From a bacterium (GTDB lineage Bacteria > Planctomycetota > UBA1135 > UBA2386), in assembly GCA_024743115.1 (NCBI GenBank), contig JANSXC010000004.1, positions 140,113 through 204,112 of the forward strand: 64,000 nt of DNA, written 5' to 3'. The translations under genes were made by a program, and so were the position numbers. The notes beneath the pieces were generated by a model. It searched no databases, was not told the origin of the DNA, and worked only from the letters and a program-made list of their open reading frames with translations. This document shows, one piece after another, positions 3,285-56,930 of this stretch (position 1 is the first letter of the stretch; each line of letters opens with the position of its first letter).

Positions 3285-3438
3285 ACGTCGCGATCGTGCG
3301 GCAAGAACATGCTTCTCGCCGACGAATCCGCTACTGTCCCGCGCCCGACGGGCCACGCTATTCCAGGGCGGCCTTCCGCCGCAGACGCGACCCGCTGCAG
3401 AGCAAGATGAATCGCACGCCTCACCTTCGCACGGACTC

Positions 3439-4737: not shown

Positions 4738-4752
4738 CCGCTGCGGTCACGT

Positions 4753-4833
4753 CCAGGGTTCGGCTCAGGGGTCGGGCGTGGTGAGGCCGGGGCACGAGGA
4801 TAGGCTCTCGCCATCTTTCGCCCCGAACCCTGG
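4753..4833 (+). other. Long-range perfect 11-bp inverted repeat (CCAGGGTTCGG ... CCGAACCCTGG) bracketing 59 nt in the rhlE / flavoprotein intergenic region
   Basis: The left arm is 4753-4763 and the right arm is 4823-4833. The right arm ends 8 nt before ATG 4842. This could be a terminator for rhlE or a 5'-UTR structure for the downstream gene. Confidence 0.3.
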
Positions 4834-4841
4834 CCAAGCAC

Positions 4842-5600: not shown

Positions 5601-5619
5601 TCCGACGGGCGCGGCGCGC

Positions 5620-19398: not shown

Positions 19399-19475
19399 TG
19401 GCACGCCCGACAGGGATCGAACCTGTGACCTCCGGTTTAGGAAACCGATGCTCTATCCAACTGAGCTACGGGCGC
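19399..19475 (-). tRNA. tRNA-Arg (anticodon CCT), CCA encoded
   Basis: The reverse complement reads GCGCCCG TA GCTC AGTTGGATA GAGC A TCGGT TTCCTAA ACCGG AGGTC ACAGG TTCGATC CCTGT CGGGCGT G CCA. This is a full cloverleaf of 77 nt with CCT centred in the anticodon loop and the GTTCGATC T-loop. Confidence 0.95.
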
Positions 19476-42338: not shown

Positions 42339-43667
42339 ATGGCCGGCCCAGCCGTCCTGCCCTACACTGCCACGCATCCGACCGGAGGTGTTTTGACGTT
42401 CTCGCCGATTCCTGAGCTGCTCGAAGAAATCAAGGCTGGCCGCCCGATCGTGCTGGTCGACGACCCTGACCGTGAGAACGAGGGCGACCTCTGTTTCGCC
42501 GCCGAGAAAGCGACGCCCGAACTCGTGGCGCTCATGGCGCGGGAGGCCTGCGGGCTGATCTGCGTCGCGCTGGACGGCGCCATCTGCGATCAGCTGCAGC
42601 TGCCGATGATGGTGGCGGAGAACCGGGCCCATCTCGGCACCGCGTTCACGGTCAGCGTCGAGGCGGCCGAGGGCGTCACGACGGGGATCTCGGCCAAGGA
42701 CCGGGCGCGCACCATCCTCGAACTCGCCAGGCCCGATGCCACGCCGGCGGACCTCGTCAGTCCTGGCCATATCTTCCCGCTGCGCGCGCGGGATGGCGGC
42801 ACCCTCGTGCGGGCCGGGCAGACGGAGGGCATGGTCGATCTGTGTCGTCTGGCTGGCCTGCGGCCGGCCGGCGTGATCTGCGAGATCACGAAAGAAGACG
42901 GCGAGATGGCCCGCGTGCCCGACCTCGAGAAGTTCTGCGAGCGGCACTCGGTCAAGATGGGCTGCATCGCGGACCTCGTCGAATATCGTCGGCGCCGCGA
43001 GCGCATCATCGAGCGTGTGACGGTTGCGAAGATGCCGACCGAGTTCGGCCACTTCGACTGCCACACCTACGTCAGCAAGGCCGACAACCGAACGCACATG
43101 GCGCTCGCGGTCGGGTTCGACAGCCCCGGCGAGGACGGGCGGTTTCCGCCGATCGACGACGCGGTGCTCGTGCGCGTGCACTCGGCGTGTCTGACCGGCG
43201 ACGCGTTCGGGTCACTGCGCTGCGATTGCGGGCCCCAGCTGCGCGAAGCCATGCGGCGCGTGCAGGCGGAGGGCCGCGGCATCGTGCTCTACATCAGCCA
43301 GGAAGGTCGCGGCATCGGTCTCGCCAACAAGCTGCGCGCCTACACGCTCCAGGATCAGGGGATGGATACCGTCGAGGCCAATCTCCACCTGGGCTTCCGG
43401 GCGGACGAGCGCGAGTTCGGCACCGGCGCCCAGATCCTGCACGACCTCGGTTGTCGCCGGCTGCGGGTTCTGACCAACAACCCCAAGAAGCTCACGGGGC
43501 TGCAGGGCTACGGGCTCGAGATCGCCGAGCAGGTGGCGCTGGACATCGAGCCCAACCCCTACAACCAACGATACTTGGACACCAAGCGGGAGAAGATGGG
43601 GCATCTTTTCGATGCGCCGAAAACCTCGGAATCCACGCCCGAATCCACTCCGGGTGGGGACGCCTGA
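42339..43667 (+). CDS. ribBA: Bifunctional 3,4-dihydroxy-2-butanone-4-phosphate synthase / GTP cyclohydrolase II
   Basis: ORF 42339-43667. It contains VLVDDPDRENEGDLCFAAE, TVSVEA, and for GCH-II VHSACLTGDAFGSLRCDCGPQL and YISQEGRGIGL. An alternative start is TTG 42393, which is preceded by GGAGGTG. Confidence 0.95.
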   Translation: MAGPAVLPYTATHPTGGVLTFSPIPELLEEIKAGRPIVLVDDPDRENEGDLCFAAEKATPELVALMAREACGLICVALDGAICDQLQLPMMVAENRAHLGTAFTVSVEAAEGVTTGISAKDRARTILELARPDATPADLVSPGHIFPLRARDGGTLVRAGQTEGMVDLCRLAGLRPAGVICEITKEDGEMARVPDLEKFCERHSVKMGCIADLVEYRRRRERIIERVTVAKMPTEFGHFDCHTYVSKADNRTHMALAVGFDSPGEDGRFPPIDDAVLVRVHSACLTGDAFGSLRCDCGPQLREAMRRVQAEGRGIVLYISQEGRGIGLANKLRAYTLQDQGMDTVEANLHLGFRADEREFGTGAQILHDLGCRRLRVLTNNPKKLTGLQGYGLEIAEQVALDIEPNPYNQRYLDTKREKMGHLFDAPKTSESTPESTPGGDA

Positions 43668-43763
43668 TCCCGTTGGAGCGGGACTTCCGACCCGAGCAGC
43701 CGGCGGCCGCGCGATTCGCGACCTCGGCGGGAAGAAAGTCGGCGGTCGTCCTTCTCAGGTGCT

Positions 43764-44363
43764 GTGTACGCCTTGAAGCTCACCACCGAGACCTCTGATA
43801 CCGACCTGATCGCGGCCGTCCTCGACGGCAGCGAGGCCGCGTTCGGCACGCTCGTGGATCGCTACAAGGACCGGCTGTTCCGGCTCCTGAGCCGCTACTG
43901 CCGGGATCAGGTCGAGTGCGAGGATCTGGCCCAGGACGTGTTCCTCAAGGTTTTCCGCAAGCTCGACACGTTCCAGGGCAGCTCGGCCTTCTTCACCTGG
44001 CTCTACCGCATCGCCGTCAACACGGCGACGGACCATCTGGCGCGGGCGAGCTCGCGGCGGTTGCGCCTGGTCGAGGACGTCGTGCTCGAGATCAACGAAC
44101 GCGATCACGATCCGGACAACCCGGCCGTGCCCGCGATGGCGGCGGAGCTCGCGACCGTGACTCGTCGCATCCTCGACAAGCTGCCCGAGAAGTACCGCAC
44201 GATCCTGATCCTGCGGGAGTACGAAGAACTCAGCTACAACGAGATCAGTGCGGTGCTCGAGTGCAATCTCGGGACCGTCGAGTCTCGCCTGTTCCGCGCC
44301 CGGCAGCGCTTCAAGGAAGCGCTCGAGCGCGACCATCCCGATCTGGTCCCCGCTCGGGGCTGA
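43764..44363 (+). CDS. ECF sigma factor (RpoE-like)
   Basis: ORF 43764-44363, GTG start. It contains DLIAAVLDGSEAAFGTLVDRYKDRLFRLLSRY, EDLAQDVFLKVFRKLDTFQGSSAFFTWLYRIAVN and LREYEELSYNEISAVLECNLGTVESRLFRARQRF. Confidence 0.92.
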   Translation: MYALKLTTETSDTDLIAAVLDGSEAAFGTLVDRYKDRLFRLLSRYCRDQVECEDLAQDVFLKVFRKLDTFQGSSAFFTWLYRIAVNTATDHLARASSRRLRLVEDVVLEINERDHDPDNPAVPAMAAELATVTRRILDKLPEKYRTILILREYEELSYNEISAVLECNLGTVESRLFRARQRFKEALERDHPDLVPARG

Positions 44364-44366
44364 GCC

Positions 44367-44840
44367 GTGGATGAATCACAGAAAGGTTTGACGATGCAAC
44401 TCTCCGACAACGATCAGCGGCTGCTGCAGAAGTATCGCGATGGCGAACTCGCGGGCAGCGAGGCCGAGGCGCTGAAGGCGCGGCTCAGCAACGAGCCGGG
44501 GCTCGCCGCCGGTCTCGCGGAGCTCGACGAGCTCGCGCGCGGGTTCGTGAGTGGGCGCGAGGCGACATTCGCGGCGCCGGCCGGTTTCACCGCCGGGCTG
44601 CTGGCCGAGGTGCGTCAGCTGCCTGACCGCATTCAGATGGCCGAAGCCGAGGTCGCAGGCTCCGCGCTGGTGATGTGCCGGCGCCTGCTGCTCGCAGCCG
44701 CGGTGTTGTTCGGGCTGGGGCTGTGCTGGCACGCCGGCCTGTTCGACAACGGCCGCAACGAGACGCTCGAGGCGGATCCGGCCGAAGTCCAGCGCGAGAT
44801 GGAGCGCCTCGACGAGCTCGTGCGCTCGCGGAAGCGCTGA
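44367..44840 (+). CDS. Single-pass membrane anti-sigma factor (putative)
   Basis: ORF 44367-44840 starts 4 nt after the sigma stop. The N-terminus LLQKYRDGELAGSEAEALKARL is anti-sigma-like. The TM segment is CRRLLLAAAVLFGLGLCW. ATG 44394 is an alternative start. Confidence 0.65.
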   Translation: MDESQKGLTMQLSDNDQRLLQKYRDGELAGSEAEALKARLSNEPGLAAGLAELDELARGFVSGREATFAAPAGFTAGLLAEVRQLPDRIQMAEAEVAGSALVMCRRLLLAAAVLFGLGLCWHAGLFDNGRNETLEADPAEVQREMERLDELVRSRKR

Positions 44841-44893
44841 GCGCCGGCGGCCAGGAGGGTCAGCCAGAAACCATCCGCGATGAACTACCCGCC

Positions 44894-45265
44894 ATGAAGC
44901 GCCTGTCGCTGTGGATCGTCGGGGCCGTCTGCGGCGGCTTCGCCGCGGGCGTCAACATCGGGCTCGTGGCGCCCGGGTGGCTCGAGCCCGAGGCGGCGAG
45001 CGCCCTCGATCAGGATGCGATGTTCATTCGCCAGATGGAGGCCGATTACGGCCTCGACGCGGAGCAGGTGCGGAGCCTGCGCCTCGTGATGCAGAATCGG
45101 CGCGAAGCCGAGCTGCAGGTCTTCACCCGGGCCGAGTTCTCGATGCTGCCGCTGCCGATCCAGCGCGAGTTGTTGGGGATTCGGGAGCAGGAAAAACAGC
45201 GGATCCTCGTCATTCTGGACGAGGAGCAGCGTGAGCGCTACGAACGCGTGACTTCAGTCAAGTAA
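44894..45265 (+). CDS. Membrane-anchored helical periplasmic protein (Spy/CpxP-like flavour, unassigned)
   Basis: In frame with ORF 44675-45265, start ATG 44894 (MKRLSLWIVGAVCGGFAAGVNIG). It then has ...GLDAEQVRSLRLVMQNRREAEL...EQEKQRILVILDEEQRERYERV. Confidence 0.5.
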   Translation: MKRLSLWIVGAVCGGFAAGVNIGLVAPGWLEPEAASALDQDAMFIRQMEADYGLDAEQVRSLRLVMQNRREAELQVFTRAEFSMLPLPIQRELLGIREQEKQRILVILDEEQRERYERVTSVK

Positions 45266-45277
45266 GAGAACAAACGG

Positions 45278-47206
45278 ATGGCCAGGATAATCGGAGTCGA
45301 CCCGGGCGACACGCTCGTCAAGATCGTCGAGCTCGACGGCAGCTACCGCAAGCCGCGACTCGTGCGCGTGCACAGCGAGGCGGCGACGCCGGCGGCGCCG
45401 CGGGCGGTGACCGTTGCCGCGGCGACGCGGAACGCGATCGATGACGGCATGAAGGGCGAGGTGCGCCTCGGTCACCCTTGCCGCGAAGCCGTTCTGCGGA
45501 CGCTGGATCTGCCGTTCAAGGGCAAGGATGCGCTGCGCAAGGTCGTCAAGGCCGAGGTCGAGGGCGAGATCCACGGCTACTCGGTCGACGACATGGTCGT
45601 CGACTTCCACGAGATCGGCGGCGGGCTCGACGACAGCACGCGCGTGCTCGTCGCGGCCGTGCCGAAAGAGGGGCTGCGTTCGCAGCTGGGTGCGCTCGAG
45701 GCCGCGGCGGTCGAGCCGGAGAGTGTCGACCTCGACACGATGGCGCTGTGGCGGGCGGCGGACTGCGTCGGTGCTTTCGAACCCGACGAGGATGACGACG
45801 GCAATCCCGAACCATCCGCGCTGACCGCGGTGCTCGAGGTCGGTTCGCGCAGTGTCAAGGTGCTGCTCGTCGACGGTGACCAGCTCGTCGACATGCGCGT
45901 GCTGCGCCTCGGCGGTGCGAGCGTCACCGAAGAGATCGCCAAGCGTCACACGTTGCCGGGCGACCTCGCGGCCGAAGCCGTGCAGGTCTGCAGTGAATCG
46001 GGCACGGACTGTGAGTTCGAGGTCGCGAGTGAGTTGCCTGCGAATCCGGGCGCGAGCGACGACGACGGCGATGCCCCGCTCGACGAGCCGGTCGACGTCG
46101 AGATGCGCTCGGTCACGGTCACGGCTGCGGAGGTCGAGTCCGTGCGCTCCGGGTTCTTGCGACGGCTCGCGCGTGAGCTCTTCCGCTACCTGGCCGCGAC
46201 CGGCAAGAGCAACATGCGGGCAGTCTGGGTGACCGGCGGCAGCTGCCGTCTGGCCGGCGTGCAGCAGGTTCTGACGGAGGTATTCGGTGTCGAGCCGCGC
46301 GAACTCAACGTGCTCGACCACGTCCAGCACGACCTCGACGAGGACGACGTGCAGGATCTCGGGCATCGGCTCGCGGTGGCGGTCGGGCTGGCGCTCGGCC
46401 CGCTCGGCGGTCCGGAGGGATTCGACATGCGTCAGGAGGACCTCGCGTTCACGCGTGGCTTCGAGCGCATCAAGTTCCCGCTCACGATCATGCTGATGGT
46501 CGGACTGCTCGCGCTGTTCGTCTTCGGTAACCACCAGCAGGCCAAGCTCAACCACCTGCACCTCGAGATCGGCAAGACGCACGTCGACGAGCGCGGCAAG
46601 ATCGGGTTCTTCGGCATGGTCAACTCGGCTCTGCGCGGCAACTGGTGGAAGGACCAGCGCAACTTCGCCTACGAGCGTTCGAAGGGGAAGATGTACAAGT
46701 GGAAGGACCTCGAGGACGAGCTCGTCAGCAAGCCGGTGCACGAGCGGCTGAAGATCATGCACGCGCGGCTCAAGGGCGTTGCTGACTACAAGCAGAAGCG
46801 CTCGGGCATCTACGAAGAGGTGTCGCTCGAATCGGGCGCCGCGGTGCTCGTGCGGTTCGCCGAGATCATGCAGCGCGTGGAGAGCGAGCTGCAGCGGCCC
46901 CTCGTGACCAAGATCTCGCTCAACATGAAGGGGGAGCGCCGCTCGCTGACCTTCCATCTCGCGCTGCGCGGGGCCGGCTTCCGTGGCCGGTCCGAGGCGC
47001 TTCGCACCGAGCTGCTCGCCGAGTTCAAACGCGAGGATTCGCCGTTCCTCGAGCCTCAGAACACCCGCCGCGTCTGGTTCGCGGAGAAACTCTTCATCGA
47101 TCAGGCCGAGACCAAGGTCGAAGGCTCCTACTTCGTCGTGACACTGGACATCAAGCCGACATTCGCGCCGTTCGGCGAGGGTGCCAGCGGGGGGCGCAAG
47201 AAATGA
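45278..47206 (+). CDS. PilM-PilN fusion / GspL-like protein (cytoplasmic actin-like domain, one TM, periplasmic domain)
   Basis: ORF 45278-47206, 642 aa. It contains ARIIGVDPGDTLVKIVELDG, LVAAVPKEGL...AVEPESVDLDTMAL and VLEVGSRSVKVLLVDGDQLVDMRVLRLGGASVTEEIA (the PilM/FtsA-type fold pattern). The TM segment is FPLTIMLMVGLLALFVFG, followed by about 230 periplasmic aa. Confidence 0.6.
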   Translation: MARIIGVDPGDTLVKIVELDGSYRKPRLVRVHSEAATPAAPRAVTVAAATRNAIDDGMKGEVRLGHPCREAVLRTLDLPFKGKDALRKVVKAEVEGEIHGYSVDDMVVDFHEIGGGLDDSTRVLVAAVPKEGLRSQLGALEAAAVEPESVDLDTMALWRAADCVGAFEPDEDDDGNPEPSALTAVLEVGSRSVKVLLVDGDQLVDMRVLRLGGASVTEEIAKRHTLPGDLAAEAVQVCSESGTDCEFEVASELPANPGASDDDGDAPLDEPVDVEMRSVTVTAAEVESVRSGFLRRLARELFRYLAATGKSNMRAVWVTGGSCRLAGVQQVLTEVFGVEPRELNVLDHVQHDLDEDDVQDLGHRLAVAVGLALGPLGGPEGFDMRQEDLAFTRGFERIKFPLTIMLMVGLLALFVFGNHQQAKLNHLHLEIGKTHVDERGKIGFFGMVNSALRGNWWKDQRNFAYERSKGKMYKWKDLEDELVSKPVHERLKIMHARLKGVADYKQKRSGIYEEVSLESGAAVLVRFAEIMQRVESELQRPLVTKISLNMKGERRSLTFHLALRGAGFRGRSEALRTELLAEFKREDSPFLEPQNTRRVWFAEKLFIDQAETKVEGSYFVVTLDIKPTFAPFGEGASGGRKK

Positions 47207-47826
47207 AACTCAGCCAGCTGGACCTCTACACCGGCCTCATCCTGCTCTGTGTGATCCTCCTGCCGGTCTGCGGTTGGTGGTGCTACCAGACCAATGAGGA
47301 GATCAAGCAGTGCGAGAAGGCGCGCCGCGACGCGACGCGCAGCAACGGTTTGCTCGAGAAGATCGGTGCGCTGCAGAAGAAGGTCGAGGTCGTCAACAAC
47401 AGCAACGCCACGCTGACCCGGACCCCGCGGCAGTTCTTCGAGACGCAGATCCTCGTGGCGGCCGCCAACGGCGGTCTCAGCGCCAACGACTTCGGTCTCG
47501 TCGGCCCGAAGGAAGAGCCGTTGACGATTCCCGGCAGTCGCCAGAAGGCGGTCGACCACGTGATGGCCGTCGACTGGAAGCGCAAGGATCTGCCGCTCAA
47601 GCTCGAACTGATCCAGGCGCTGCTCTGGAACTGCGAGTCGGGCGCCGGCATGGATCCAACGAAGCAGATGCAGTCCGTGTGGCGCCTGCGCACACTCGAC
47701 ATCACCAACATCTCCGACGGCAAGTCGCGCACGTTTGCGTCGTTCAAGACGCCGCCACCCGAGCTCGAGGATCGGTGGAGCATCACCAAGATGGAGTTCG
47801 CGCGCCGCGAACCGCGCAAGAACTGA
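47203..47826 (+). CDS. Bitopic membrane protein, GspM/PilO-like by position and topology
   Basis: ORF 47203-47826 shares an ATGA overlap with the upstream gene. It has an N-terminal TM (LYTGLILLCVILLPVCGWWCY), a short coiled coil and a periplasmic domain. I have no sequence motif for it. Confidence 0.45.
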   Translation: MKLSQLDLYTGLILLCVILLPVCGWWCYQTNEEIKQCEKARRDATRSNGLLEKIGALQKKVEVVNNSNATLTRTPRQFFETQILVAAANGGLSANDFGLVGPKEEPLTIPGSRQKAVDHVMAVDWKRKDLPLKLELIQALLWNCESGAGMDPTKQMQSVWRLRTLDITNISDGKSRTFASFKTPPPELEDRWSITKMEFARREPRKN

Positions 47827-47827
47827 C

Positions 47828-48334
47828 ATGCGTCGGTCGCTGCGATCGCGCGCGGCTGCCGCCGCGCTGGTTCTGCCCCTGATCGCGCCGATGGCCGGCG
47901 GCTGCGCGCCGCTCGTGCGGTACACCGGCGAACTCGTCGATTCCGAGTCCGGCCGCACGTGGTTCACGCGCGCACCGGCCGGCATCGGCGGCACGCTCGG
48001 CTTCCTCGTCGGCCTCCCCGTCGATGTCGTTGCGATGCCGGTCTCGTGGGCCGTCTACCGCAGCCAGCCGAAGGAGACGCGCGATGTCATGTCCGTGTTC
48101 CTGTTCCCCTCCTTCGTGCTCTGGAAGGTCGGCACGCTCGTGGGCTCCCCGTTCGATGCCGTCGAATGGGTCGTCTGGCGTTCCTGGAACGAGCAGCCCA
48201 TGACCCCCGCGCAGCGTGAGGCGATCGAGCGCGAGTGGGACGAGAAGGAATACAGCGAGTATCCCGTCAAGCCGATCTACCCGGCGACCGGTGGTACCGG
48301 CGAGCGCGTGCCGCCACCCGACGGGTCGCGCTGA
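47828..48334 (+). CDS. Lipoprotein (YceK/YidQ DUF1375-like flavour)
   Basis: In frame with ORF 47735-48334. ATG 47828 lies 1 nt after the previous stop. The lipobox is LIAPMAGGC. It contains GFLVGLPVDVVAMPVSWAVY and VGTLVGSPFDAVEWVVW. Confidence 0.55.
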   Translation: MRRSLRSRAAAAALVLPLIAPMAGGCAPLVRYTGELVDSESGRTWFTRAPAGIGGTLGFLVGLPVDVVAMPVSWAVYRSQPKETRDVMSVFLFPSFVLWKVGTLVGSPFDAVEWVVWRSWNEQPMTPAQREAIEREWDEKEYSEYPVKPIYPATGGTGERVPPPDGSR

Positions 48335-48418
48335 CGACGTCCGAGACCGCCGGCTTCGCGGCTGCTACGCTGCGCGGGTGAACCCGGGCCCGGCAACCAC
48401 ATCGCGAGACCGCCGCCG

Positions 48419-49447
48419 ATGAGTGAGTCGGCGTTGAAGCTGCGGCGGCTCGTCGAGCACGTGCTCGGTAAAGGGCGCGAACTGCCGCTCGCGATGTTGC
48501 TCGAGCAGCTCGTGGCGGTGCGCGACCTGCGGCGGGTGGCACGCAAGTTCGATGTGTCGCCGAAGGGCTTTCGCGTCGACAAGGCACCCGCGAAAGTGCT
48601 CGCGGCGCAGCTCGCCGAATTGTCCGACTCGCAGCAGCTCGACGAGGTGCTCGGGTTGTTGCGGCCGGCTACCGACGCCAGCGAGAGCAAGAGCGACGTC
48701 GGTGTCGACGCGGTGGCCGAGGCCAGGAAGGAGGCCGAAGAGCTGCTGCGTCTGCGCGAGAGCGAGTTGGCGCGGTTGCGTGACGAGCTCGACCGGGCGC
48801 GCGACGTGAGTCAGCGGGCGGGCGAACGTGAGACCCTGCTCCTGCGCAAGCTGGAGCGGCTCGAACTCGAACTCGTGGCCGAACGGCGCGACCGCGAAGC
48901 CGCCGCGAGAGCGCAGGAGCGGCCCGTAGTCGACCAGAGCCAGCAGGTCCGGGCACTCGAACGCCGGGTGCGGGAGCTGGAGGACGAACGCGACGGCTTC
49001 GTGGCCGCGGACGAGGCGCTGCGGCGGCAGCTGGCGTGGAATCGTTCGCAGCTGCGCGAGGTCGAGGCCGAGGTCAAGGAGCTCGAAGGGCTCATCCCGA
49101 AGAGTCGGCGGCGCAAGCAGAAGCCGCTGCCGCCCGCGCCGCCACCCGAGGAGTCGCGGCGCGTGCTCGTGCCGTACTTCCTGCCGTCGTTCTACAAGTC
49201 GCTCGATGGCAAGGATCGTCGCGCGGTGGAGCGCGCCGTGCAGGCGATCCTGCTGTTTTGTACCGAGGGTCACTCGTACCCCGGGCTCGAGGTCAAACAG
49301 CTCGGCGGCCAGGACACCTGGAGCTTGCGCGCGTCGCTCGATCTGCGGGTCTACTTCCGGCCGCTGCCCGACGGCGACGTCGAAGTACTCGAACTGGCCG
49401 ACCGCGAGGACCAGCGCACGACCCTGCGCCGGCTCAAGGAGAAGTAG
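48419..49447 (+). CDS. Three-part protein: unassigned N-domain, ~130-aa coiled coil, basic/Pro linker, C-terminal RelE/ParE-like domain
   Basis: ORF 48419-49447, 342 aa. Residues 248-335 read RVLVPYFLPSFYKSLDGKDRRAVERAVQAILLFCTEGHSYPGLEVKQLGGQDTWSLRASLDLRVYFRPLPDGDVEVLELADRED. This follows the RelE/ParE toxin pattern (F..f.k.l..L....r..i...i..l......pg...k.L.g....w.lR.g.d.Rv.y......v.vl.v..R). Confidence 0.55.
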   Translation: MSESALKLRRLVEHVLGKGRELPLAMLLEQLVAVRDLRRVARKFDVSPKGFRVDKAPAKVLAAQLAELSDSQQLDEVLGLLRPATDASESKSDVGVDAVAEARKEAEELLRLRESELARLRDELDRARDVSQRAGERETLLLRKLERLELELVAERRDREAAARAQERPVVDQSQQVRALERRVRELEDERDGFVAADEALRRQLAWNRSQLREVEAEVKELEGLIPKSRRRKQKPLPPAPPPEESRRVLVPYFLPSFYKSLDGKDRRAVERAVQAILLFCTEGHSYPGLEVKQLGGQDTWSLRASLDLRVYFRPLPDGDVEVLELADREDQRTTLRRLKEK

Positions 49448-50163
49448 TGCGCGGCGGGGCCCCGCGTGCGCCGGTCGCGCTGACGCCGGAGTCGCCGGCG
49501 CGTTTTCCGGATCCGCGGCTCTACGACGGGCAGGGGCTCGTCGCGGTCGGAGGTGATCTCAGCCAGGCGCGCCTGCTCGCGGCCTACCGCAGGGGCATTT
49601 TTCCGTGGTATGACATCGGCTACCCCCCGATGTGGTGGAGTCCGGACCCGCGGGCGATCCTCGAGCCGCGTGAGCTCCACGTCGGCCGGAGTCTGCGGCG
49701 GGTGCTCGAACGCGGCGGGTTCGAGCTGGCCTGGAACACCTGTTTCGAGCGGGTCATGGGCGAATGCGGCCGTGGTCGCGACGAGGGCACCTGGATCATG
49801 CCGGAGATGGTCCAGGCCTACGCCCGGCTGCACCGCGCCGGCCATGCCCACAGTCTCGAGGTCTTCGAGGCGGGGGAGCTGGTCGGAGGGATCTATGGGG
49901 TGCAGCTCGGGGCCGCCTTCGCCGCCGAATCCAAGTTCCACCGCCGCACGGACATGTCGAAGGTCGCGCTGGTGGCCCTCGTGCGGTCGCTGGCGGCGGC
50001 GGGGATCGAGCTCCTCGACGTGCAGTTCGTCACGGACCACCTCGCGCGGCTGGGGGCGCGGGAGATCCCGCGGCGGGAGTATCTGGCGCGACTCGCGGTC
50101 GCCGCGGCCAAGACCGTGGATCTCGGGGGCCTGGTCCCCACGGTCACGCCGCCGCGCGTCTGA
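49447..50163 (+). CDS. aat: Leucyl/phenylalanyl-tRNA--protein transferase
   Basis: In frame with ORF 49036-50163. GTG 49447 overlaps the preceding TAG by 1 nt (TAGTG). It contains LLAAYRRGIFPWYD, PMWWSPDPRAIL, HSLEVFEAGELVGGIYGV and FAAESKFHR. Confidence 0.9.
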   Translation: MRGGAPRAPVALTPESPARFPDPRLYDGQGLVAVGGDLSQARLLAAYRRGIFPWYDIGYPPMWWSPDPRAILEPRELHVGRSLRRVLERGGFELAWNTCFERVMGECGRGRDEGTWIMPEMVQAYARLHRAGHAHSLEVFEAGELVGGIYGVQLGAAFAAESKFHRRTDMSKVALVALVRSLAAAGIELLDVQFVTDHLARLGAREIPRREYLARLAVAAAKTVDLGGLVPTVTPPRV

Positions 50164-50306
50164 CGGCGGTCACGGGGCCGGATCGGGTTTGTGGCCGCGA
50201 TAGTGGCCGGGTTTGTAGGAAGTGCCCGGCTGACACCGCGTCCATAGCTCGGCTCTGTGCTACGTTGCGCGACCCCGGGAGACCCCCCTCCACCGAACCG
50301 AACGCG

Positions 50307-53300
50307 ATGAAACTGCGACTCGCTCTGCCAGGCCTGGTTCTTCTCAGCTTCACGACGCCCCTCGTGGCGCAGACCCCGATGGAGATCGAGATGATGCGCG
50401 CGGCTGCGGCGGCGGGCATGCCCCCAGGGGCCGTGATCCAGTCCGGCGACGGCCCGGCCAGCGCTGCCTCCGGTGGCGACAGCGAAGCCGACAAGGCGGC
50501 CAAGGCGATGCTCGCGAAGTGGAAGAAGCTCGTCTTCGACCGTCGCCCCTCGTCGGTGCTCGCGGCCTGGGCCGCGCCTGAGCTGAAGCCCTACGATCCC
50601 GCCGAAGAGAAGAAGAAGATCGACGACGACCTGCGCGAGATGGTCCTCGAGCAATTCGGGGTCGATCCGACCAAGGTCGAGGCGCCGAAGGCCGAGACCA
50701 AGAAGCCGACCGATACGGCAGCGAAGGCTGCGGCGCAGCAACTCGAGGCGAAGACGCTCCAGCGCGAGCTCGAGATGTTCCAGCGCGATGTCACGTTGTC
50801 ACGTTGGGACAAGGTCGCCGAGTTCTTCGGCGCGCTGCCCGAGAAGGAGCAGAAGGGCGCGTACGAGCACTTCCTCAAGCAGTTGCTCAAGCACCCGCGG
50901 ACAGCAGCGGATCGCCGCGTGCCCTCGAATCTGCAGGAGAAGAACCGGTTCTCGTTCGGTGAAACACTGATCCTCGCCGGCATGGCGCCGGGTGGGTTCG
51001 ACAAGAAGCAGGTCAAGCTGCTCGCGCCGCTCGTGCGACGGGCGCTCGACGACGGCAACGTCGTCGAAGAACTCATTCGGCTGCTCGGCGAAGAGATCGT
51101 GTTGCCCGAGGAGGAGCAACGGCTCGATCGTCGCGAGGCCGCGATGCTGCTGTCGGCGCTCAAACAGGAGCGGGAGCTCGGCGCGTTCCTGCCCTCGCCC
51201 GAAGAGGCCGAGGAGAAGAACGATCGCGAGGCCCTCAATCTGCTCGCGCGCCACAACCTCGCGATGTTCGCGAAGGAGAAGCGCAATCAGTTTCTCGAAG
51301 CGGCATGGCGGGTGACGCAGGCGGTGCTCAAGAAGGGCGAGGTCGAGAAGGAGGAGAAAGAGGAGGCGCTGCTGCGAGCCGTCGACCTCGCGCCGCGGGT
51401 GAGCGAAGAGCTCGGCCCGAAGTGGCTCGCGCAGAGCTTCACGGAGCAGCCTGTGCGCGGCATGGAGATCATCGCGACGATCGGCGGCGAAGCCGCGAAG
51501 GGCTTTCAGAAGCACGCGAAGAACATCGACTACCGCAGCAAGGTCCTCAAGCTGCAGAAGGTCGCCGTCGATGCGCTCCTCGAATCGGCGCCGCAGCTCG
51601 CGGAGGAATGGCGGCCGACGCTCGCGCTGCTCGCTGCCGGTTGGATCGTCGAGGCGTCGTACACCAACCAATACAGCAAGACGTCGCGCTACGGCCCGAT
51701 GATGCAGCGCGACTCGTTCGGCAACATCTTCTGGTCGTCGCAGCGCATGGGGGGCGGCGGTCAGGTGTCCGCGGTCGAGCCGGCCGACATGATCGAGGCG
51801 CAGCCGGGCGGGGCGTGGGTCACGATGCTCAACGACGAGCTGCGGCCGCATTTCCAGGCCGTGTCCGCGCAGCTGTTCCTCAAGGTGCAGGAGGACGAGA
51901 AGGCGTTCCCGTTCATCGAGCAGCTGGCCGAGGTCAACCCGCGCAAGGCCAAGGATCTCGCCGACGAGTTCCTGCGTGTCTGGATGCGCAACAACAACCC
52001 CAACGTCAACAACAACCGCACCAACCCGTACATGTTCATCTACGGGTTCGACCGGCGCGCCGGCGGCATTCCGCTCACGCGCAGCAAGCAGGAGCGCAAC
52101 CTCGAGGCACTGTCGCGCTGGGTCGCGCGGTTGCGCAAGCTGCCGATCGGCGGCGTGGATCAGAAGCTGCTGAGTCAGGCCTTCGTCGCCGCCCACAGCA
52201 CGGCCGAGGTCTACCAGCTCGAGACGATCGAGAACGTGTTCGGCGACGTGGGTGATCTCGAGCCCGTGTTGCTCGGTGAGCTGCTGTCGAAGATGCGCGC
52301 CAACCTCGCGACCGTGTGGCGTCGCCCCGACGTTCAGGAGGAGAAGAAGACCCGGCGCCGCGAGAAGGAGATGATGGCCGAAGTCATGAAGGGCTACGCC
52401 ACAGCGCTCAACGTCGCACGTGACGTCATGACCAGGCAGGGCGATCACTGGGCGCTGCTGTCGCTCACGGGTGCGATCCTTCACGACCAGAACAATTTCG
52501 CCAAGGAGCAGAAGCGCGACAGCAACTTCTCCGAGGCGCGCAAGGGTGCGTTCGCGCTCTTCCAGTCCGCCGCGGAGGATTACGTCGAGCGGGCGCCGGA
52601 TCTACGGCTGGACGAAGAGACGATCTCCGCGTTCGACACCTGGTTCTATGCCGCGCTGGGCGCCTGCGATCTCGGCGTCGTCGACGAAGAGACGGTCGTG
52701 GCGAAGAGCCAGCTGCCGCTCATCAAGCAGGCGCTCGCGAGTTTGCCGAAGGGCAGTCGCGAGCGGCACGAGTCGATGTTCGCGAACGCGCTGTTCACGC
52801 GCATGTCGTCGGTGCGGCCGCAGATCAAGTTCCGCTATCTCGAGGCCGGCTTCGAGATCGTTGGCGACCATCCGCAGGCTGCCGAGGCGCGCAAGGTCTG
52901 GGACTACTACGCCGACCTCACGCACGAGCTCAGGCTCGAGGTCGTCGTCGACGGGCCCACCGAGGTCGCGACCGGCGAGTTCGGCGTGCGCGTCGACATC
53001 GTCCACACGGATGCGATCGAGCGCGAGAGCGGCGGCTTCGCGAAGTACGCGCAGAACCAGAACAACATGAGCTACGCCTACAACTATGGGCGGCCGCTCG
53101 AGAACTACCGCGATCGCTTCGACGAGGCGGTGCGCACCGCGCTCAGCGAGCACTTCGAGGTGCTGTCCGTGACGTGGAACGGCGAGCAGATGGAGAGCGA
53201 GTCGACCGATCAGGTCGGCTGGCGGCGGACGCCGTACGCCTATTTGCTGCTGCAGGCGCGCGGGGAAGAGGTCGATCGCATTCCAGCGATCCAGATGGAC

Positions 53301-54101
53301 TTCGACTTCCTCGACACGTCGGGCTACGCGATCCTGCCGATCGGCTCGGCGCCCGTCGCGATCGATGCATCGACTGCGGCCACCACGCCGCGGCCCTACC
53401 AGAACCTCAAGGTGACGCAGCTGCTCGACGAGCGGCGCGTCGACGAAGGCAAGCTGACGCTCGAGATCAAGGCCAAGGCCGAGGGTCTCGTGCCGGATCT
53501 CGACGACTTCCTCGCGATGGAACTGCCGGGTTACAGGATCGACAAGTCCGACGACCAGGGAGCGACGATTTCGAAGTTCGCCGATGACCAGCTCTTCGTC
53601 GAGACCGAGCGCGTCTGGCTGCTGTCGCTCGTGCCGGAAGAGGGCGACGACTTCGGGGAGGAGTTCGTCTTTGCCCGGCCGACGGCCGAAGACGTCGAGG
53701 CGGTCTACCAGCGCTACGCCGATGCGGACCTGCAGACCGTGGACCCGCGGATCGCGCTCGCGCAGCCCGGGCCCGAGGACGTGCCCGTCTGGTTCTGGGT
53801 GCTCATCGCGGTGGCGCTGGTGCTGTTCAGCATCTGGTTCTTCGCCGTGCAGCCGGGCGGTGGTGGTGCAACGACGGCCGACGGCGGCGTCCAGTTGCCG
53901 GGCACGATCTCGGCGTTCTCGGTGCTCGGTTTACTGCGGCAGCTCGAGACCGGTGCGCCGCTCACGGCGCCTGAGCGCGAAGAGCTCACCGCCACGATCA
54001 CCCGGATCGAGGCGGTCCACTTCGCGCGGTCCCAGGACCCCGACCTCGATCTCGAAGCCGTCGCCCGCGATTGGCTCGGCCGCGCGAATCGCCGCGCCTG
54101 A
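50307..54101 (+). CDS. 1264-aa secreted/membrane-anchored protein; the C-terminal third is BatD-like by architecture
   Basis: In frame with ORF 49764-54101, start ATG 50307 (MKLRLALPGLVLLSFTTPLVAQ, signal). It has a Lys/Glu-rich N-region and a long helical middle. The C-terminal part has beta-rich segments (LRLEVVVDGPTEVATGEFGVRVDIVH, IPAIQMDFDFLDTSGYAILPIG, KLTLEIKAKAEG). A TM (VWFWVLIAVALVLFSIWFFAV) and a ~80-aa tail follow. Confidence 0.6.
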   Translation: MKLRLALPGLVLLSFTTPLVAQTPMEIEMMRAAAAAGMPPGAVIQSGDGPASAASGGDSEADKAAKAMLAKWKKLVFDRRPSSVLAAWAAPELKPYDPAEEKKKIDDDLREMVLEQFGVDPTKVEAPKAETKKPTDTAAKAAAQQLEAKTLQRELEMFQRDVTLSRWDKVAEFFGALPEKEQKGAYEHFLKQLLKHPRTAADRRVPSNLQEKNRFSFGETLILAGMAPGGFDKKQVKLLAPLVRRALDDGNVVEELIRLLGEEIVLPEEEQRLDRREAAMLLSALKQERELGAFLPSPEEAEEKNDREALNLLARHNLAMFAKEKRNQFLEAAWRVTQAVLKKGEVEKEEKEEALLRAVDLAPRVSEELGPKWLAQSFTEQPVRGMEIIATIGGEAAKGFQKHAKNIDYRSKVLKLQKVAVDALLESAPQLAEEWRPTLALLAAGWIVEASYTNQYSKTSRYGPMMQRDSFGNIFWSSQRMGGGGQVSAVEPADMIEAQPGGAWVTMLNDELRPHFQAVSAQLFLKVQEDEKAFPFIEQLAEVNPRKAKDLADEFLRVWMRNNNPNVNNNRTNPYMFIYGFDRRAGGIPLTRSKQERNLEALSRWVARLRKLPIGGVDQKLLSQAFVAAHSTAEVYQLETIENVFGDVGDLEPVLLGELLSKMRANLATVWRRPDVQEEKKTRRREKEMMAEVMKGYATALNVARDVMTRQGDHWALLSLTGAILHDQNNFAKEQKRDSNFSEARKGAFALFQSAAEDYVERAPDLRLDEETISAFDTWFYAALGACDLGVVDEETVVAKSQLPLIKQALASLPKGSRERHESMFANALFTRMSSVRPQIKFRYLEAGFEIVGDHPQAAEARKVWDYYADLTHELRLEVVVDGPTEVATGEFGVRVDIVHTDAIERESGGFAKYAQNQNNMSYAYNYGRPLENYRDRFDEAVRTALSEHFEVLSVTWNGEQMESESTDQVGWRRTPYAYLLLQARGEEVDRIPAIQMDFDFLDTSGYAILPIGSAPVAIDASTAATTPRPYQNLKVTQLLDERRVDEGKLTLEIKAKAEGLVPDLDDFLAMELPGYRIDKSDDQGATISKFADDQLFVETERVWLLSLVPEEGDDFGEEFVFARPTAEDVEAVYQRYADADLQTVDPRIALAQPGPEDVPVWFWVLIAVALVLFSIWFFAVQPGGGGATTADGGVQLPGTISAFSVLGLLRQLETGAPLTAPEREELTATITRIEAVHFARSQDPDLDLEAVARDWLGRANRRA

Positions 54102-54133
54102 CCCTTCCTTTCTCGTTCGCTCGCTGATCCCCA

Positions 54134-55138
54134 ATGACTGCCCAAGATGCCCCCGCCACGGCTCGGTTTACCGAGACCCGTGAGTTCCTCGCTCAGATTC
54201 GTAACCGAGTCAACAAGACGGTCGTCGGCCAGGAAGTGGTCATCGAGCGCGCGCTGATCGCGATGCTGACCTCGGGTCACCTGCTGCTGCAGGGCGTTCC
54301 CGGTCTCGCGAAGACGCTGCTCGTCGCGGCGGTCAGCAAGGCGATCGATCTGCAGTTCTCGCGCATTCAGTTCACGATCGACCTGTTGCCGTCCGACATC
54401 CTCGGTTCGGAGATCCTCGATCAGAAGACCAACGAGTTCCGCACCCACAAGGGGCCGATCTTCACCAACCTGTTGCTCGCCGACGAGATCAACCGCGCGG
54501 CGCCGAAGGTGCAGAGCGCGCTGCTCGAGGCGATGCAGGAGCGTCGGGTCACGATTGGCAACGAGAACTATGCGTTGCCGGCACCGTTCCTCGTGATCGC
54601 GACGCAGAACCCGGTCGAGCAGGCCGGCACGTTCGAGCTGCCCGAGGCGCAGCTTGACCGCTTCATGCTGCTGCACCGGCTCGAGTATCTCGAGCCGGAG
54701 GACGAGAAGGAAGTTCTGCGCCGCAACATGAAGCTCGGAGTCCGCCGCGAGGGCAAGGGCGCGGTCGCGCGTACCGAGTTCGATGCGATCGAGGACACGA
54801 TGAGGGGTAGTACCGAGAAGCTCGTGCAGGCGATGGAGGATGTGCAGGAAGTGCACGTCAGTGAGGCGTTCCTCGAGCACACGATCGAGATCGTCAACCG
54901 CACGCGCAACCACCCGAAGCTCGAACTCGGCTGCAGTCCGCGCGCGGGCATCTCGCTCGTCAAGGCGTCGCGCGCCCGCGCGCTGATCCACGGCCGCGAC
55001 TACGTGCTGCCTGAGGATCTGTTCGCGCTCGCGGAGGACGTCGTGCTGCACCGCATTCGTCTGACCTACGAGGCGATCGCCGAGGGCTTCACGGGCCCGC
55101 AGGTCCTGCAGGAGATCCTCTCCGAGACCGCGCAATGA
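54134..55138 (+). CDS. MoxR family AAA+ ATPase
   Basis: ORF 54134-55138. It contains VVGQEVVIERALIAMLTSGHLLLQGVPGLAKT (Walker A), LLADEINRAAPKVQSALLEAMQE (Walker B/sensor) and ATQNPVEQAGTFELPEAQLDRF. Confidence 0.95.
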   Translation: MTAQDAPATARFTETREFLAQIRNRVNKTVVGQEVVIERALIAMLTSGHLLLQGVPGLAKTLLVAAVSKAIDLQFSRIQFTIDLLPSDILGSEILDQKTNEFRTHKGPIFTNLLLADEINRAAPKVQSALLEAMQERRVTIGNENYALPAPFLVIATQNPVEQAGTFELPEAQLDRFMLLHRLEYLEPEDEKEVLRRNMKLGVRREGKGAVARTEFDAIEDTMRGSTEKLVQAMEDVQEVHVSEAFLEHTIEIVNRTRNHPKLELGCSPRAGISLVKASRARALIHGRDYVLPEDLFALAEDVVLHRIRLTYEAIAEGFTGPQVLQEILSETAQ

Positions 55139-56031
55139 GTGTGGCCGGCCATTCCAGGTCCGGCCGTGCTGGTGCGGCAGGACGACTGGGTTCCCTCGAC
55201 CCGCTGCCCGCGAAGAAGTTCGTCATCGGGGTGCAGAAGCTGGCCGACGATCTGACCTACGGTCTCGATGGTTCGCGCTACTGCGGCTCGGGCATCGACT
55301 ACGTGCAGTCGCGGCCCTACCAGGAAGGCGACTCGGTCAAGGCCATCGACTGGCGCGTCACGGCGCGGTCGGGCAAGCATCACGTCAAGGAGTACGAGGC
55401 ACAGCGGCGTTACCCGGCGTGGTTCGTCATCGATACGTCCGCGTCGATGACCGTCTCGTCGACCCGCATCAGCAAGTACGAACTCGCGCTGCGCACGGCC
55501 GGTGGCCTCGCGCTCGCGTGTCTCGACCGCATGAGCCCGGTCGGGGTGCTCGGGGCCGGTGCGAGCGACCTGCGCATCGAACCGAGCCTCGCGAAGGACC
55601 TCGTGCTGCAGTGGCTGCTGCGGTTGCGCGACTACCGGCTCGACGAGCCGACGCGCATCGTTCGCCGGCTTGCGGAGCTGCGGCCGACGCTGAAGGCCCG
55701 CTCGCTGATCTTCGTCTGCAGCGATCTGCACGAGCCCGAAGCGGTGCACTCGATCGCGATGCTCGCGCAGCAGCACGAGGTCGCGGTGCTGCAGTTTCAG
55801 GACCCGGCCGAGGTGACGCTGCGCGGCGCCGGTTTCCTGCGCGCGCAGGAGGCGGAGACGGGTCGCGGTTTCGTGACTCACGGTGGTCGCCAGGTGATGG
55901 ATCAGGAACGCATCGCGGGCGAACTGCGTCGGGGTGGCGTCGGCCACCTGTTGATCCGCACGGACCAGCCGTTTCTGCCCAAGCTGCGCCTCTTCCTGCG
56001 GTCGCGCGGCATGTCTCGGGGGGCGCGATGA
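55135..56031 (+). CDS. DUF58 domain protein (MoxR partner)
   Basis: ORF 55135-56031 shares an ATGA overlap with moxR. It contains SRPYQEGDSVKAIDWRVTARSGKHHVKEYE, the DUF58 signature, and then FVIDTSASM. Confidence 0.9.
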   Translation: MSVAGHSRSGRAGAAGRLGSLDPLPAKKFVIGVQKLADDLTYGLDGSRYCGSGIDYVQSRPYQEGDSVKAIDWRVTARSGKHHVKEYEAQRRYPAWFVIDTSASMTVSSTRISKYELALRTAGGLALACLDRMSPVGVLGAGASDLRIEPSLAKDLVLQWLLRLRDYRLDEPTRIVRRLAELRPTLKARSLIFVCSDLHEPEAVHSIAMLAQQHEVAVLQFQDPAEVTLRGAGFLRAQEAETGRGFVTHGGRQVMDQERIAGELRRGGVGHLLIRTDQPFLPKLRLFLRSRGMSRGAR

Positions 56032-56930
56032 GTTCCACTCGCAGCACGGGGCCCAGCATGTGGGGACGGATGCCGAGTTGTCTGGTGCGCCTGTTCGGGG
56101 CCGCACTCTTCGTTGTCGCGACCGCCGTCGCGCAGGTTCAGAACGATCGCGAATCGACGGTCGGGATGCGCGCGCGCATTCACGAGCTCGTCTTGCCGGG
56201 ATCCGAGGTGACGGTCAAACCGACGGGTCACGACACGCCCGTCGTCGTCCGCATCACGGCGAAGCGACCGCACGGTGACGCGTTCCGCTACGATCTCGAA
56301 TGGGTGGCGCTCGAAGTGGGCTCGCACGACTTGCGGGATTACCTCGCGCGCAAGGACGGTTCGCCGCTCGAGGGGTTGCCAGAGCTGACGGTGGAGGTCG
56401 CCGCCGTGCGGCCGGCGGATCAGACCGAGCCCGTCGATCCCACGCCGATCCGCCCGGAGAACACCGGCGGCTACACCGTGCAGCTCGTAGTCGCGACGGT
56501 GATCTGGATCATCGGTTTGCTCGCGATCCTGTTCGTCGGCCGCAAGCGCAAGGCGGTAGCCCGCGCCACGGAAGCACCGCCGACGCTCGCGGATCGGCTG
56601 CAGCCGTTCGTTGCCGCGGCCGCCGACGGTAGCGCGACCGATGCCGAGAAAGCCGAGCTCGAGCGGCTGCTCGTCGCGTTCTGGCGCGAGAGGCTCGAAC
56701 TCGAAGGCCTCAAGGCGGACCGGGCGATTGCGAAGATCCGCGAGCACGACGAGGCGGGGCAGCTCGTGCGTCAGCTCGAGGCGTGGTTGCACATGCCCGA
56801 GCCGCCGCAGGCCGTCGACGTCGAGGGGCTGCTGGCGCCGTATCGCAGCGTCTCGGCCGCGGAGTTCGATGAGTCGCGTGTCGGCGTCGCCGCCGGAGCG
56901 GCTACCGGAGTGGGCGGGAGGCGGGCCTGA
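56028..56930 (+). CDS. Membrane protein of the Bat-type operon (DUF4381-like position and topology)
   Basis: In frame with ORF 55419-56930. ATG 56028 forms an ATGA overlap. It has a signal or anchor segment, a mid TM (VVATVIWIIGLLAILFVG) and a helical tail (AEKAELERLLVAFWRERLELEG). Confidence 0.55.
   Translation: MSSTRSTGPSMWGRMPSCLVRLFGAALFVVATAVAQVQNDRESTVGMRARIHELVLPGSEVTVKPTGHDTPVVVRITAKRPHGDAFRYDLEWVALEVGSHDLRDYLARKDGSPLEGLPELTVEVAAVRPADQTEPVDPTPIRPENTGGYTVQLVVATVIWIIGLLAILFVGRKRKAVARATEAPPTLADRLQPFVAAAADGSATDAEKAELERLLVAFWRERLELEGLKADRAIAKIREHDEAGQLVRQLEAWLHMPEPPQAVDVEGLLAPYRSVSAAEFDESRVGVAAGAATGVGGRRA

Follow-up and report, generated by a model that had tools for sequence, protein, structure and literature searches.

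Within a 64,000-nucleotide window of planctomycete DNA (assembly GCA_024743115.1, contig JANSXC010000004.1, positions 140,113 to 204,112 of the forward strand; positions below are those of the window), a gene that we call X encodes a 342-aa protein ending in a genuine RelE-superfamily domain, homologous to the RelE toxins. X is nevertheless not the toxin of a toxin-antitoxin (TA) module: it occupies one syntenic locus that is under strong purifying selection, and its inheritance resembles that of a housekeeping gene. It belongs to an unannotated family of vertically inherited, cytoplasmic proteins of ~320-440 aa present in two phyla, for which no Pfam or NCBIfam model exists. An initial annotation, made from the sequence alone, had proposed a RelE/ParE-type tail and had stressed the overlap of X with the downstream gene aat; its structural insight was right, but its emphasis on aat was not. 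The gene and the domain at issue are:

48419..49447, + strand, stop codon included: gene X (N-domain, coiled coil and RelE-like domain, 342 aa), an ATG-started open reading frame (ORF)
49169..49444, + strand: RelE-fold C-domain (aa 251-342), identified by Foldseek, hmmsearch, hhalign and invariant residues

The fold of the C-domain was assessed in an AlphaFold2 model of X, computed from a 36-sequence alignment (mean predicted local distance difference test score, pLDDT, 85.6). In this model a strand (252-254) is followed by two helices (256-261 and 267-286), four strands (292-294, 301-304, 309-315 and 321-328) and a last helix (329-341). This beta-alpha-alpha-beta-beta-beta-beta-alpha topology is the compact alpha/beta fold of the RelE/ParE superfamily. 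An independent model of the domain alone reached a pLDDT of 86.3 and a predicted template modeling score (pTM) of 0.78. When the full-length and domain-only models were compared to the PDB with Foldseek, the top 50 matches were nearly all RelE, YoeB, YafQ, HigB and ParE proteins (probability 1.00), with E-values of ~2e-4, query and target template modeling scores of 0.55-0.66 (TMq) and 0.6-0.77 (TMt), and root mean square deviations (rmsd) of 2.4-3.5 Å. The best matches were 3oei_C, 2khe and 3bpq_B (rmsd 2.4-2.6, TMt up to 0.77).

Sequence comparisons point to the same family. X alone and a profile of its close family retrieved nothing relevant from the PDB sequences. A more diverse profile of 26 C-domain sequences, 26-43% identical to the C-domain of X, matched E. 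coli RelE (4v7k, E=5e-4) and M. jannaschii RelE3 (1.1e-3), and more weakly M. tuberculosis RelK (0.011) and YoeB (0.17-0.3). An hhalign comparison of the C-domain with E. coli RelE gave a probability of 83.7% (P=8e-6); residues 22-86 of the RelE sequence used here agree with the PDB sequence. Distant family members also have sub-threshold Pfam matches to ParE_toxin (E=0.0012; 19.8 bits against a cut-off of 23), ParE_like, YoeB and HigB. Both profile and structure methods, by which the initial annotation had proposed to check the fold, thus return RelE-family matches, and its RelE/ParE-type tail can be described more precisely as RelE-like.

The four parts into which the initial annotation had divided the product are borne out by the AlphaFold2 model and the heptad registers. 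The model comprises a helical N-domain (3-79), an acidic disordered segment (86-95), two long helices (96-165 and 173-225), a linker (226-250) that includes KSRRRKQKPLPPAPPPEE, and the C-domain (252-341). The parts preceding the C-domain are:

48419..48673, + strand: N-domain (aa 1-85), five short helices, basic (isoelectric point, pI, 10), with a putative helix-extended loop-helix (SAP/HeH-like) core; from AlphaFold2 and sub-threshold SAP matches
48560..48589, + strand: loop PKGFRVDKAP (aa 48-57) within the N-domain; G50 and R52 invariant in every superfamily branch
48704..48913, + strand: coiled-coil helix 1 (aa 96-165); from AlphaFold2; one heptad register, a/d occupancy 0.68
48914..48934, + strand: variable, Pro-containing turn or break between the coiled-coil helices (aa 166-172); from AlphaFold2; 17% identity, indel-rich among relatives
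48935..49093, + strand: coiled-coil helix 2 (aa 173-225); from AlphaFold2; one heptad register, a/d occupancy 0.73; 60% identity
49094..49168, + strand: basic Pro-rich linker (aa 226-250; IPKSRRRKQKPLPPAPPPEESRR), pI 11.8, low pLDDT; P227 and R231 invariant

The C-domain is the best-conserved part of X. Mean pairwise identity in the close family is 82% for the C-domain (minimum 72%), 61% for the N-domain, 60% for helix 2, 45% for helix 1 and 15-53% for the linkers. By comparison, the median identity to the window protein in the same genomes is 66% for aat and 77% for MoxR. Charge complementarity between the N- and C-domains, sought as a sign of interaction in cis, followed no consistent pattern.

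Active sites within the RelE family vary. Cleavage by E. coli RelE uses K52 or K54 as the base and R81 as the acid, with R61 and Y87 assisting (PMC5027501). The HMMER and hhalign alignments agree on the equivalent residues in X: S302 for K52, R304 for K54, R310 for R61, R329 for R81 and T335 for Y87. Since cleavage involves an R81-type arginine and a K52/K54-type basic residue, this minimal basic pair has equivalents in X. Among the 26 diverse sequences the only C-domain residues invariant over all branches are P252, R310 and R329, and an Arg or Lys stands in the K52 or the K54 column in 26/26; E330, F258, P288 and G297 are conserved at ≥90% across branches. R304, R310 and R329 are all invariant in the clade of X. 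A check of the RelE/ParE catalytic residues, which had been recommended from the start, therefore finds the R61 and R81 equivalents kept throughout the superfamily and those of K52 and Y87 replaced in the clade of X; the Y87 column is aromatic in most distant branches.

X is, judging from its conservation, a real protein. At least 290 homologues were found, the best 120 of which span 324-368 aa and match X over nearly its full length at 54-71% identity. Those listed with source names are nearly all called "hypothetical protein", and those with organism names come from Planctomycetota metagenome-assembled genomes (MAGs). GC content is even over the region (64-72%). Long antisense or overlapping ORFs, such as 48365..49273 on the minus strand, were dismissed as high-GC artefacts, the conserved frame being the plus-strand one. 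No toxin model of Pfam, NCBIfam, PADLOC or PHROGs matched X or its N- and C-domains taken singly, even at E<=10, and the coiled-coil matches obtained (SMC, LmuB, JetC, tape measure) were set aside as compositional.

The case against a TA module rests on the absence of an encoded antitoxin and on the single, syntenic and strongly constrained locus. The nearest gene 5' of X ends 84 nt away and its 3' neighbor aat overlaps it by 1 nt, which leaves no space for an antitoxin gene beside it. The lack of an adjacent antitoxin gene, already pointed out in the initial annotation, holds in the window and in every relative context looked at: no antitoxin-sized gene was found beside X in the window or in the contexts of the close relatives (group 1), of more distant Planctomycetota (group 2) or of Myxococcota. 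We surveyed the group-1 loci using one genome per GTDB species, which yielded 58 loci, nearly all from Planctomycetota MAGs, with three under non-planctomycete or unclassified titles (L009, L011 and L030). X occupies one locus in each of these 58 species genomes, and all are syntenic. The hallmarks of type II TA toxins are thus missing from X, which has 342 aa instead of standing alone at ~85-100 aa, is found at a single syntenic locus in the 58 species genomes where such toxins are patchy, mobile and often present in several copies, and has uniform GC content.

The wider family keeps the same architecture. An exhaustive HMMER search with the C-domain profile retrieved 93 proteins, distant relatives included. 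The distant relatives of the C-domain are not stand-alone toxins: most are 312-442 aa long and carry the domain at their C-terminus, and the N-domain and C-domain always co-occur. The arrangement of N-domain, coiled coil and RelE-like domain is kept in three branches: that of X, group 2 (~317-351 aa, from Planctomycetota MAGs) and group 3 (~386-441 aa, from Myxococcota MAGs), members of the last containing an additional HEAT-like insertion (E=0.0022 for Pfam HEAT in P0181). Further members are P0163 and P0193 (~333-346 aa). A homologue search with the C-domain alignment gave mostly short fragments, and a second alignment gave 18 matches, enough to place group 3 in Myxococcota. In the searchable literature on coiled-coil RelE fusions in Planctomycetes or on the operon described below we found no account of this family. 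One relative, P0192 (656 aa), begins with a long region that contains a SEC-C metal-binding motif (Pfam E=3.1e-9) and continues with a coiled coil and a RelE-like domain.

In the window, X lies in a tightly packed row of genes on one strand, in the order ribBA, extracytoplasmic function (ECF) sigma factor, putative anti-sigma factor, small anchored protein, PilM-like protein, p207, p199, X and aat. The neighbors of X are:

43764..44363, + strand: ECF sigma factor, whose gene opens the conserved operon (Pfam Sigma70_r2, r4_2 and Sigma70_ECF); 5' of X in groups 1 and 2
44367..44840, + strand: putative anti-sigma factor, 157 aa, no Pfam match; named for its position after the ECF sigma gene
44894..45265, + strand: small protein of ~123 aa with a predicted N-terminal membrane anchor, no Pfam match; ORF in a conserved position
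45278..47206, + strand: PilM-like protein of 642 aa with an actin fold (Pfam PilM_2, E=8e-21); its C-terminal half contains a hydrophobic segment
47203..47826, + strand: p207, predicted membrane protein whose start overlaps the stop of the PilM-like gene; conserved ORF, no family match
47828..48334, + strand: p199, ~168 aa from an internal ATG, predicted lipoprotein or membrane protein; 44-52% identical to its group-2 homologues
49447..50163, + strand: aat (Leu/Phe-tRNA-protein transferase), 238 aa, presumed GTG start (Pfam PF03588, TIGR00667)

The PilM-like protein also matches TIGR01175 and the Amuc_1101 family, below their cut-offs. A promoter and terminator scan of 43400-50500 gave predictions at or below the number expected from shuffled sequence, with none in the p199-X or X-aat junctions. 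Downstream of aat lie genes for a 1262-aa secreted or membrane protein, MoxR, DUF58 and two VWA proteins. This 3' region (50313-58839, + strand) begins with the 1262-aa protein, which has a signal peptide and no family match (its ORF is open from 49764), and continues with the MoxR AAA+, DUF58 and two VWA genes in a Bat/MoxR-like arrangement that is syntenic in relatives.

By gene order, X is most deeply linked in Planctomycetota to the ECF sigma/PilM-like envelope operon, of which it is a distal gene. Among group-2 loci, where X is ~32% identical to that of the window, the order ECF sigma, anti-sigma, small protein, PilM-like, p20x, p15x and X was found in all four that have enough flanking sequence. 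The p199 gene lies directly 5' of X in 49/51 group-1 loci with enough flank and in 5/5 group-2 loci, and in two of the latter (L068 and L071) the start of X overlaps the stop of the p199 homologue; ribBA is present on the 5' side in L071 and L072. The Myxococcota homologues stand alone among housekeeping genes, with neither the PilM-like gene, aat nor a small neighbor. In one group-1 locus (L003) a 1067-aa gene with weak sigma-70 r2/r4 matches lies on the opposite strand between p199 and X (2539-5742, - strand), the X-aat pair being intact.

The overlap with aat reported in the initial annotation is real: the last letter of the stop codon of X (TAG, 49445-49447) is also the first G of the GTG at 49447, forming TAGTG, and the downstream gene is a true aat, its product scoring above the cut-offs of both PF03588 Leu_Phe_trans (E=3.4e-66, 222.4 bits against 22.7) and TIGR00667 (195.8 bits against 143.55). 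The GTG is the presumed start because it is the first in-frame start past the stop of X and homologues start 3 to ~75 nt from the end of X. A conserved X-aat pair, the proposed check on this association, was found in the close relatives, aat lying directly 3' of X in 53/58 group-1 loci; one or two genes (Nudix/DUF4743 and/or a lipoprotein that we call p230) intervene in four, and a contig ends there in one. The overlap itself is not conserved among these loci, where gaps range from 3 to ~75 nt, and aat is a neighbor of X in 0/5 group-2 and 0/3 Myxococcota loci. The two genes are probably co-transcribed, but their adjacency carries little specific information because the whole 12-gene block from ribBA to DUF58 is syntenic in the clade. 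We conclude that the adjacency is a clade-specific secondary juxtaposition and that aat is not a deep functional partner of X, so that the weight once placed on a functional tie between them was excessive.

The gene that follows X varies outside the closest relatives. The stop of X is overlapped by p230 in three group-2 loci (L065, L069 and L072; the copies in L069 and L072 are 56% identical), and p230 is also present in group-1 loci L054, L055 and L061. In group 2 and in these divergent group-1 loci, p230 begins at the stop of the X homologue or overlaps it. Its product is lipoprotein-like, ~230-260 aa long and without a Pfam match (L054 5981-6673; L061 ~6011-6658; L055 ~6053-6232; L069 5459-6241; L072 8053-8790; L065 ~1648-2082). 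The window has no p230, and aat occupies that position. X and aat are separated by a DUF4743/NUDIX hydrolase gene in those group-1 genomes that diverge most (L053 5999-6880; L054 ~6349-7527). Three of the Myxococcota contexts (L066 4193-5551, L070 779-2188 and P0238) have a gene for a radical-SAM methylthiotransferase of the MiaB/RimO type (UPF0004-Radical_SAM-TRAM) within ~1.5-5 kb of the X homologue, which may only reflect synteny within the lineage.

The N-domain has more marginal resemblances. Its five helices (3-18, 24-31, 34-43, 58-66 and 71-79) carry a motif common to all branches, L-R-x-x-A-x-x-x-G-L-x-x-K-G-[FY]-R-x-[ED]-K, in which G50 and R52 are invariant across groups. Helix 34-43, the loop and helix 58-66 are compatible with a SAP/HeH motif (~35 aa, two helices, Leu pattern, Gly in the loop), and Pfam SAP matched 5/30 family N-domains below threshold (best E=5.2e-4; E=0.096 for P0166), Rho_N matching 1/30. 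An N-domain profile run against PDB sequences gave six matches, all marginal (E 0.07-0.8) and all to trigger-factor N-domains on the GFRxGxxP signature, the motif by which trigger factor contacts the ribosome (PMC11725819). In the X family the loop G-[FY]-R-x-[ED]-K-A-P likewise lies between two helices, and its invariant G and R coincide with those of the signature (GFRvEKAP against GFRpGKAP). Unlike trigger factor, however, the N-domain is predicted to be all-helical, lacking the beta-sheet of the trigger-factor alpha/beta domain, and SAP scores better than Trigger_N, which matched 2/30 family N-domains (best E=0.022). Given the marginal E-values, an hhalign probability of only 3% (P=0.014) and the lack of a predicted beta-sheet, we retain the resemblance as a lead at the level of a motif, short of an established homology.

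The closest characterized relatives of the C-domain are the RelE toxins, and the closest architectural precedents are Cami1 and the RNase toxin-like (RTL) domain of CnuH, both defense effectors. With E. coli RelE, archaeal RelE3 and M. tuberculosis RelK, ribosome-dependent mRNA endonucleases of type II TA systems, the C-domain shares the beta-alpha-alpha-beta4-alpha fold, sequence homology and the R61, R81 and K54 equivalents. X differs from them in being ~3.6 times longer, its RelE-like domain forming the tail of a protein with an N-domain and a coiled coil, in having no antitoxin gene and one syntenic chromosomal locus under strong purifying selection, in the Ser for K52 and Thr for Y87 of its clade, in a domain that is not basic, and in matching no Pfam model. 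The superfamily fold is shared with YoeB and ParE as well. By eye, the PGLEVK...WS.R...R.VY stretch of X aligns with E46, W56-S57, R59 and R65 of YoeB; X has Asp and Gln where YoeB has H83 and Y84, and the YoeB profile matches are weak (E 0.17-0.3).

Cami1 is an antitoxin-free, dimeric CARF-RelE fusion that acts as an ancillary effector of type III CRISPR systems and is activated by cyclic tetra-adenylate (cA4) (PMC11229360); it appears at rank 50 of the Foldseek matches (8phb_A). Like X, it carries a RelE-family domain C-terminal to another domain of the same polypeptide, regulatory in Cami1, and has no antitoxin. It has a CARF sensor and lies in a CRISPR locus, whereas X has a SAP/HeH-like domain and a coiled coil in an ECF sigma/PilM-like operon, and no nucleotide-sensor domain was detected in X. 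The helicase CnuH of the CoCoNuT systems carries an RTL domain of RelE/colicin D fold whose catalytic status is uncertain (PMC11090510). It too presents a RelE-like domain inside a larger protein and belongs to a coiled-coil-rich system, but the domain is internal to a helicase of a McrBC-type defense system, while X is small, has a housekeeping-like distribution and lacks a defense context. X is thus set apart from Cami1 and CnuH by the domains joined to the RelE-like one, by its operon and by a mode of inheritance resembling that of housekeeping genes.

How might such a protein work? The reading we tentatively prefer, although we would put it somewhat short of an even chance, is that X is a cis-regulated, antitoxin-free RelE-type module that targets RNA or the ribosome and gives the envelope operon its output in the cytoplasm. 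The RelE-like domain would still bind RNA, the most plausible target being mRNA in the A site of the ribosome, where the retained R61, R81 and K54 equivalents would serve to cleave the mRNA or the domain would block it. The ECF sigma factor would control X at the level of transcription, and the N-domain and coiled coil would control it in cis, with no antitoxin involved; an antiparallel coiled-coil hairpin could place the N-domain beside the RelE domain. X would then be the translation-directed cytoplasmic output of an envelope-sensing module. We infer ribosome or RNA binding, catalysis, regulation in cis and the link to envelope signaling, and we favor an RNA-directed role because it is exactly the catalytic Arg pair of RelE that is invariant in all branches. 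The initial annotation had offered two options, a ribosome-dependent RNase that would be tethered or auto-inhibited and a module that would bind the ribosome without catalysis; explanations of this class remain the best and have a precedent in Cami1. A bolder version, which we regard as improbable, would make X a bipartite ribosome-engaging protein and a new class of translation regulators: the G-F-R loop of the N-domain, resembling that of trigger factor, would dock near the exit site (uL23), the RelE-derived head would enter or guard the A site, and the coiled coil would span or measure the distance, or dimerise two of these units. If this were true, an ECF sigma-controlled envelope module in Planctomycetota, or a lone gene in Myxococcota, could stall or cut translation on selected ribosomes, for instance membrane-engaged ones, without an antitoxin.

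Several observations weigh against the RNA-directed module. The K52 column is Ser and the Y87 column Thr throughout the clade of X, so that the catalytic set appears, from the alignments, to be incomplete there. The C-domain of X has a pI of 6.8 and a net charge of 0, compared to a pI of 9.7 for E. coli RelE; its mean net charge is +1.2 in the clade of X, +2.8 in group 2 and +3.4 in group 3, and this weak charge would argue against RelE-like docking on rRNA in the clade of X. X has no match at E<=10 to Pfam PF05016 ParE_toxin, PF06769 YoeB_toxin, PF05015 HigB-like or PF24732 ParE_like. The pTM of the full-length model is 0.33, which makes the relative placement of its domains unreliable. The PilM-like operon is missing from the Myxococcota branch, so the envelope link does not hold throughout the family. 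Finally, the near-total conservation over the C-domain surface fits a protein-protein interface equally well. Some of these points favor the main rival, a doubtful but serious one, in which a domesticated RelE fold would bind proteins (or simply RNA) as the head of a dimeric coiled-coil adaptor organizing the cytoplasmic face of the PilM-like membrane complex, with no mRNA cleavage and no entry into the A site. Such a non-catalytic scaffold would account for the loss of the K52 and Y87 equivalents, for the roughly neutral C-domain and for its 82% identity over the full length, as expected of an extensive conserved interface; X also lies among genes for membrane proteins, lipoproteins and a PilM-like actin-fold protein, and long coiled coils are typical of scaffolds. 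Yet the residues kept across branches are the R61 and R81 equivalents together with a basic residue at K52 or K54, a pattern not easily accounted for if the module only binds proteins, and the Myxococcota branch keeps the architecture without a PilM-like neighbor.

Other explanations fare less well. EzeT and CapRel are single-chain toxin-antitoxin proteins, and X could be imagined as a fused TA or defense protein in which the N-domain or coiled coil acts as a cis antitoxin, silencing an active RelE toxin until a trigger such as phage infection. The constant co-occurrence of the N- and C-domains, the retained RelE-type catalytic Arg residues, the absence of a separate antitoxin and the hairpin coiled coil, which judging from the AlphaFold2 model would set the two domains side by side, all fit this idea. 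We nonetheless consider it distinctly unlikely, as X is single-copy, syntenic, vertically inherited and core-like with a host-like GC content, PADLOC gives only spurious coiled-coil matches, no mobile-element or defense-island context was seen in group 1, and the viral structure library contains only small RelE/ParE-like proteins, none with the architecture of X. Very unlikely, in our view, is a partnership with Aat, perhaps in a quality-control step close to the ribosome or tRNA that would feed the N-end rule, with TAGTG enforcing co-translation. The overlapping codons of the window suggest it, as do the position of aat directly after X in 53/58 loci, or within two genes in four more, and the persistence of the pair in L003 despite the insertion between p199 and X. 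But the synteny of the ribBA-to-DUF58 block makes the adjacency unspecific, the overlap varies into gaps of 3 to ~75 nt, aat is never adjacent in group 2 (0/5) or Myxococcota (0/3), and X is followed by the p230 lipoprotein gene or a Nudix gene in group 2 and in the divergent loci of group 1. We give almost no credence to a ParE-type activity, in which the C-domain would inhibit DNA gyrase instead of acting on RNA: the fold is common with ParE (5czf and 5cw7, TM ~0.6) and distant members have sub-threshold Pfam ParE_toxin and ParE_like matches, but the sequence-profile matches are to RelE, RelK and YoeB and to no characterized ParE, and the invariant residues correspond to the catalytic Arg residues of RelE.

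To our knowledge, RelE-fold domains occur almost only as small, mobile toxins held by antitoxins, and the few fused cases, Cami1 and CnuH, belong to defense systems. In X no part of the protein is better conserved than this fold, and the protein itself is vertically inherited, has no antitoxin, is common to entire lineages of Planctomycetota and Myxococcota, and keeps the Arg pair with which RelE acts on mRNA. If the domain still acts on ribosomes, as in the RNA-directed module that we prefer, X would be a built-in chromosomal regulator of translation derived from a toxin fold and wired to an ECF sigma/PilM-like envelope operon; if it does not, X would be a clear example of a toxin fold taken over for a structural role. 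In both cases an unannotated family is defined, and a tempting but weak link to the N-end-rule transferase is corrected.

Rfam and tRNA scans gave no match near the X locus; the sole Rfam/ARAGORN match in the 64-kb window is a tRNA-Arg(CCT) at 19399-19475 on the minus strand.

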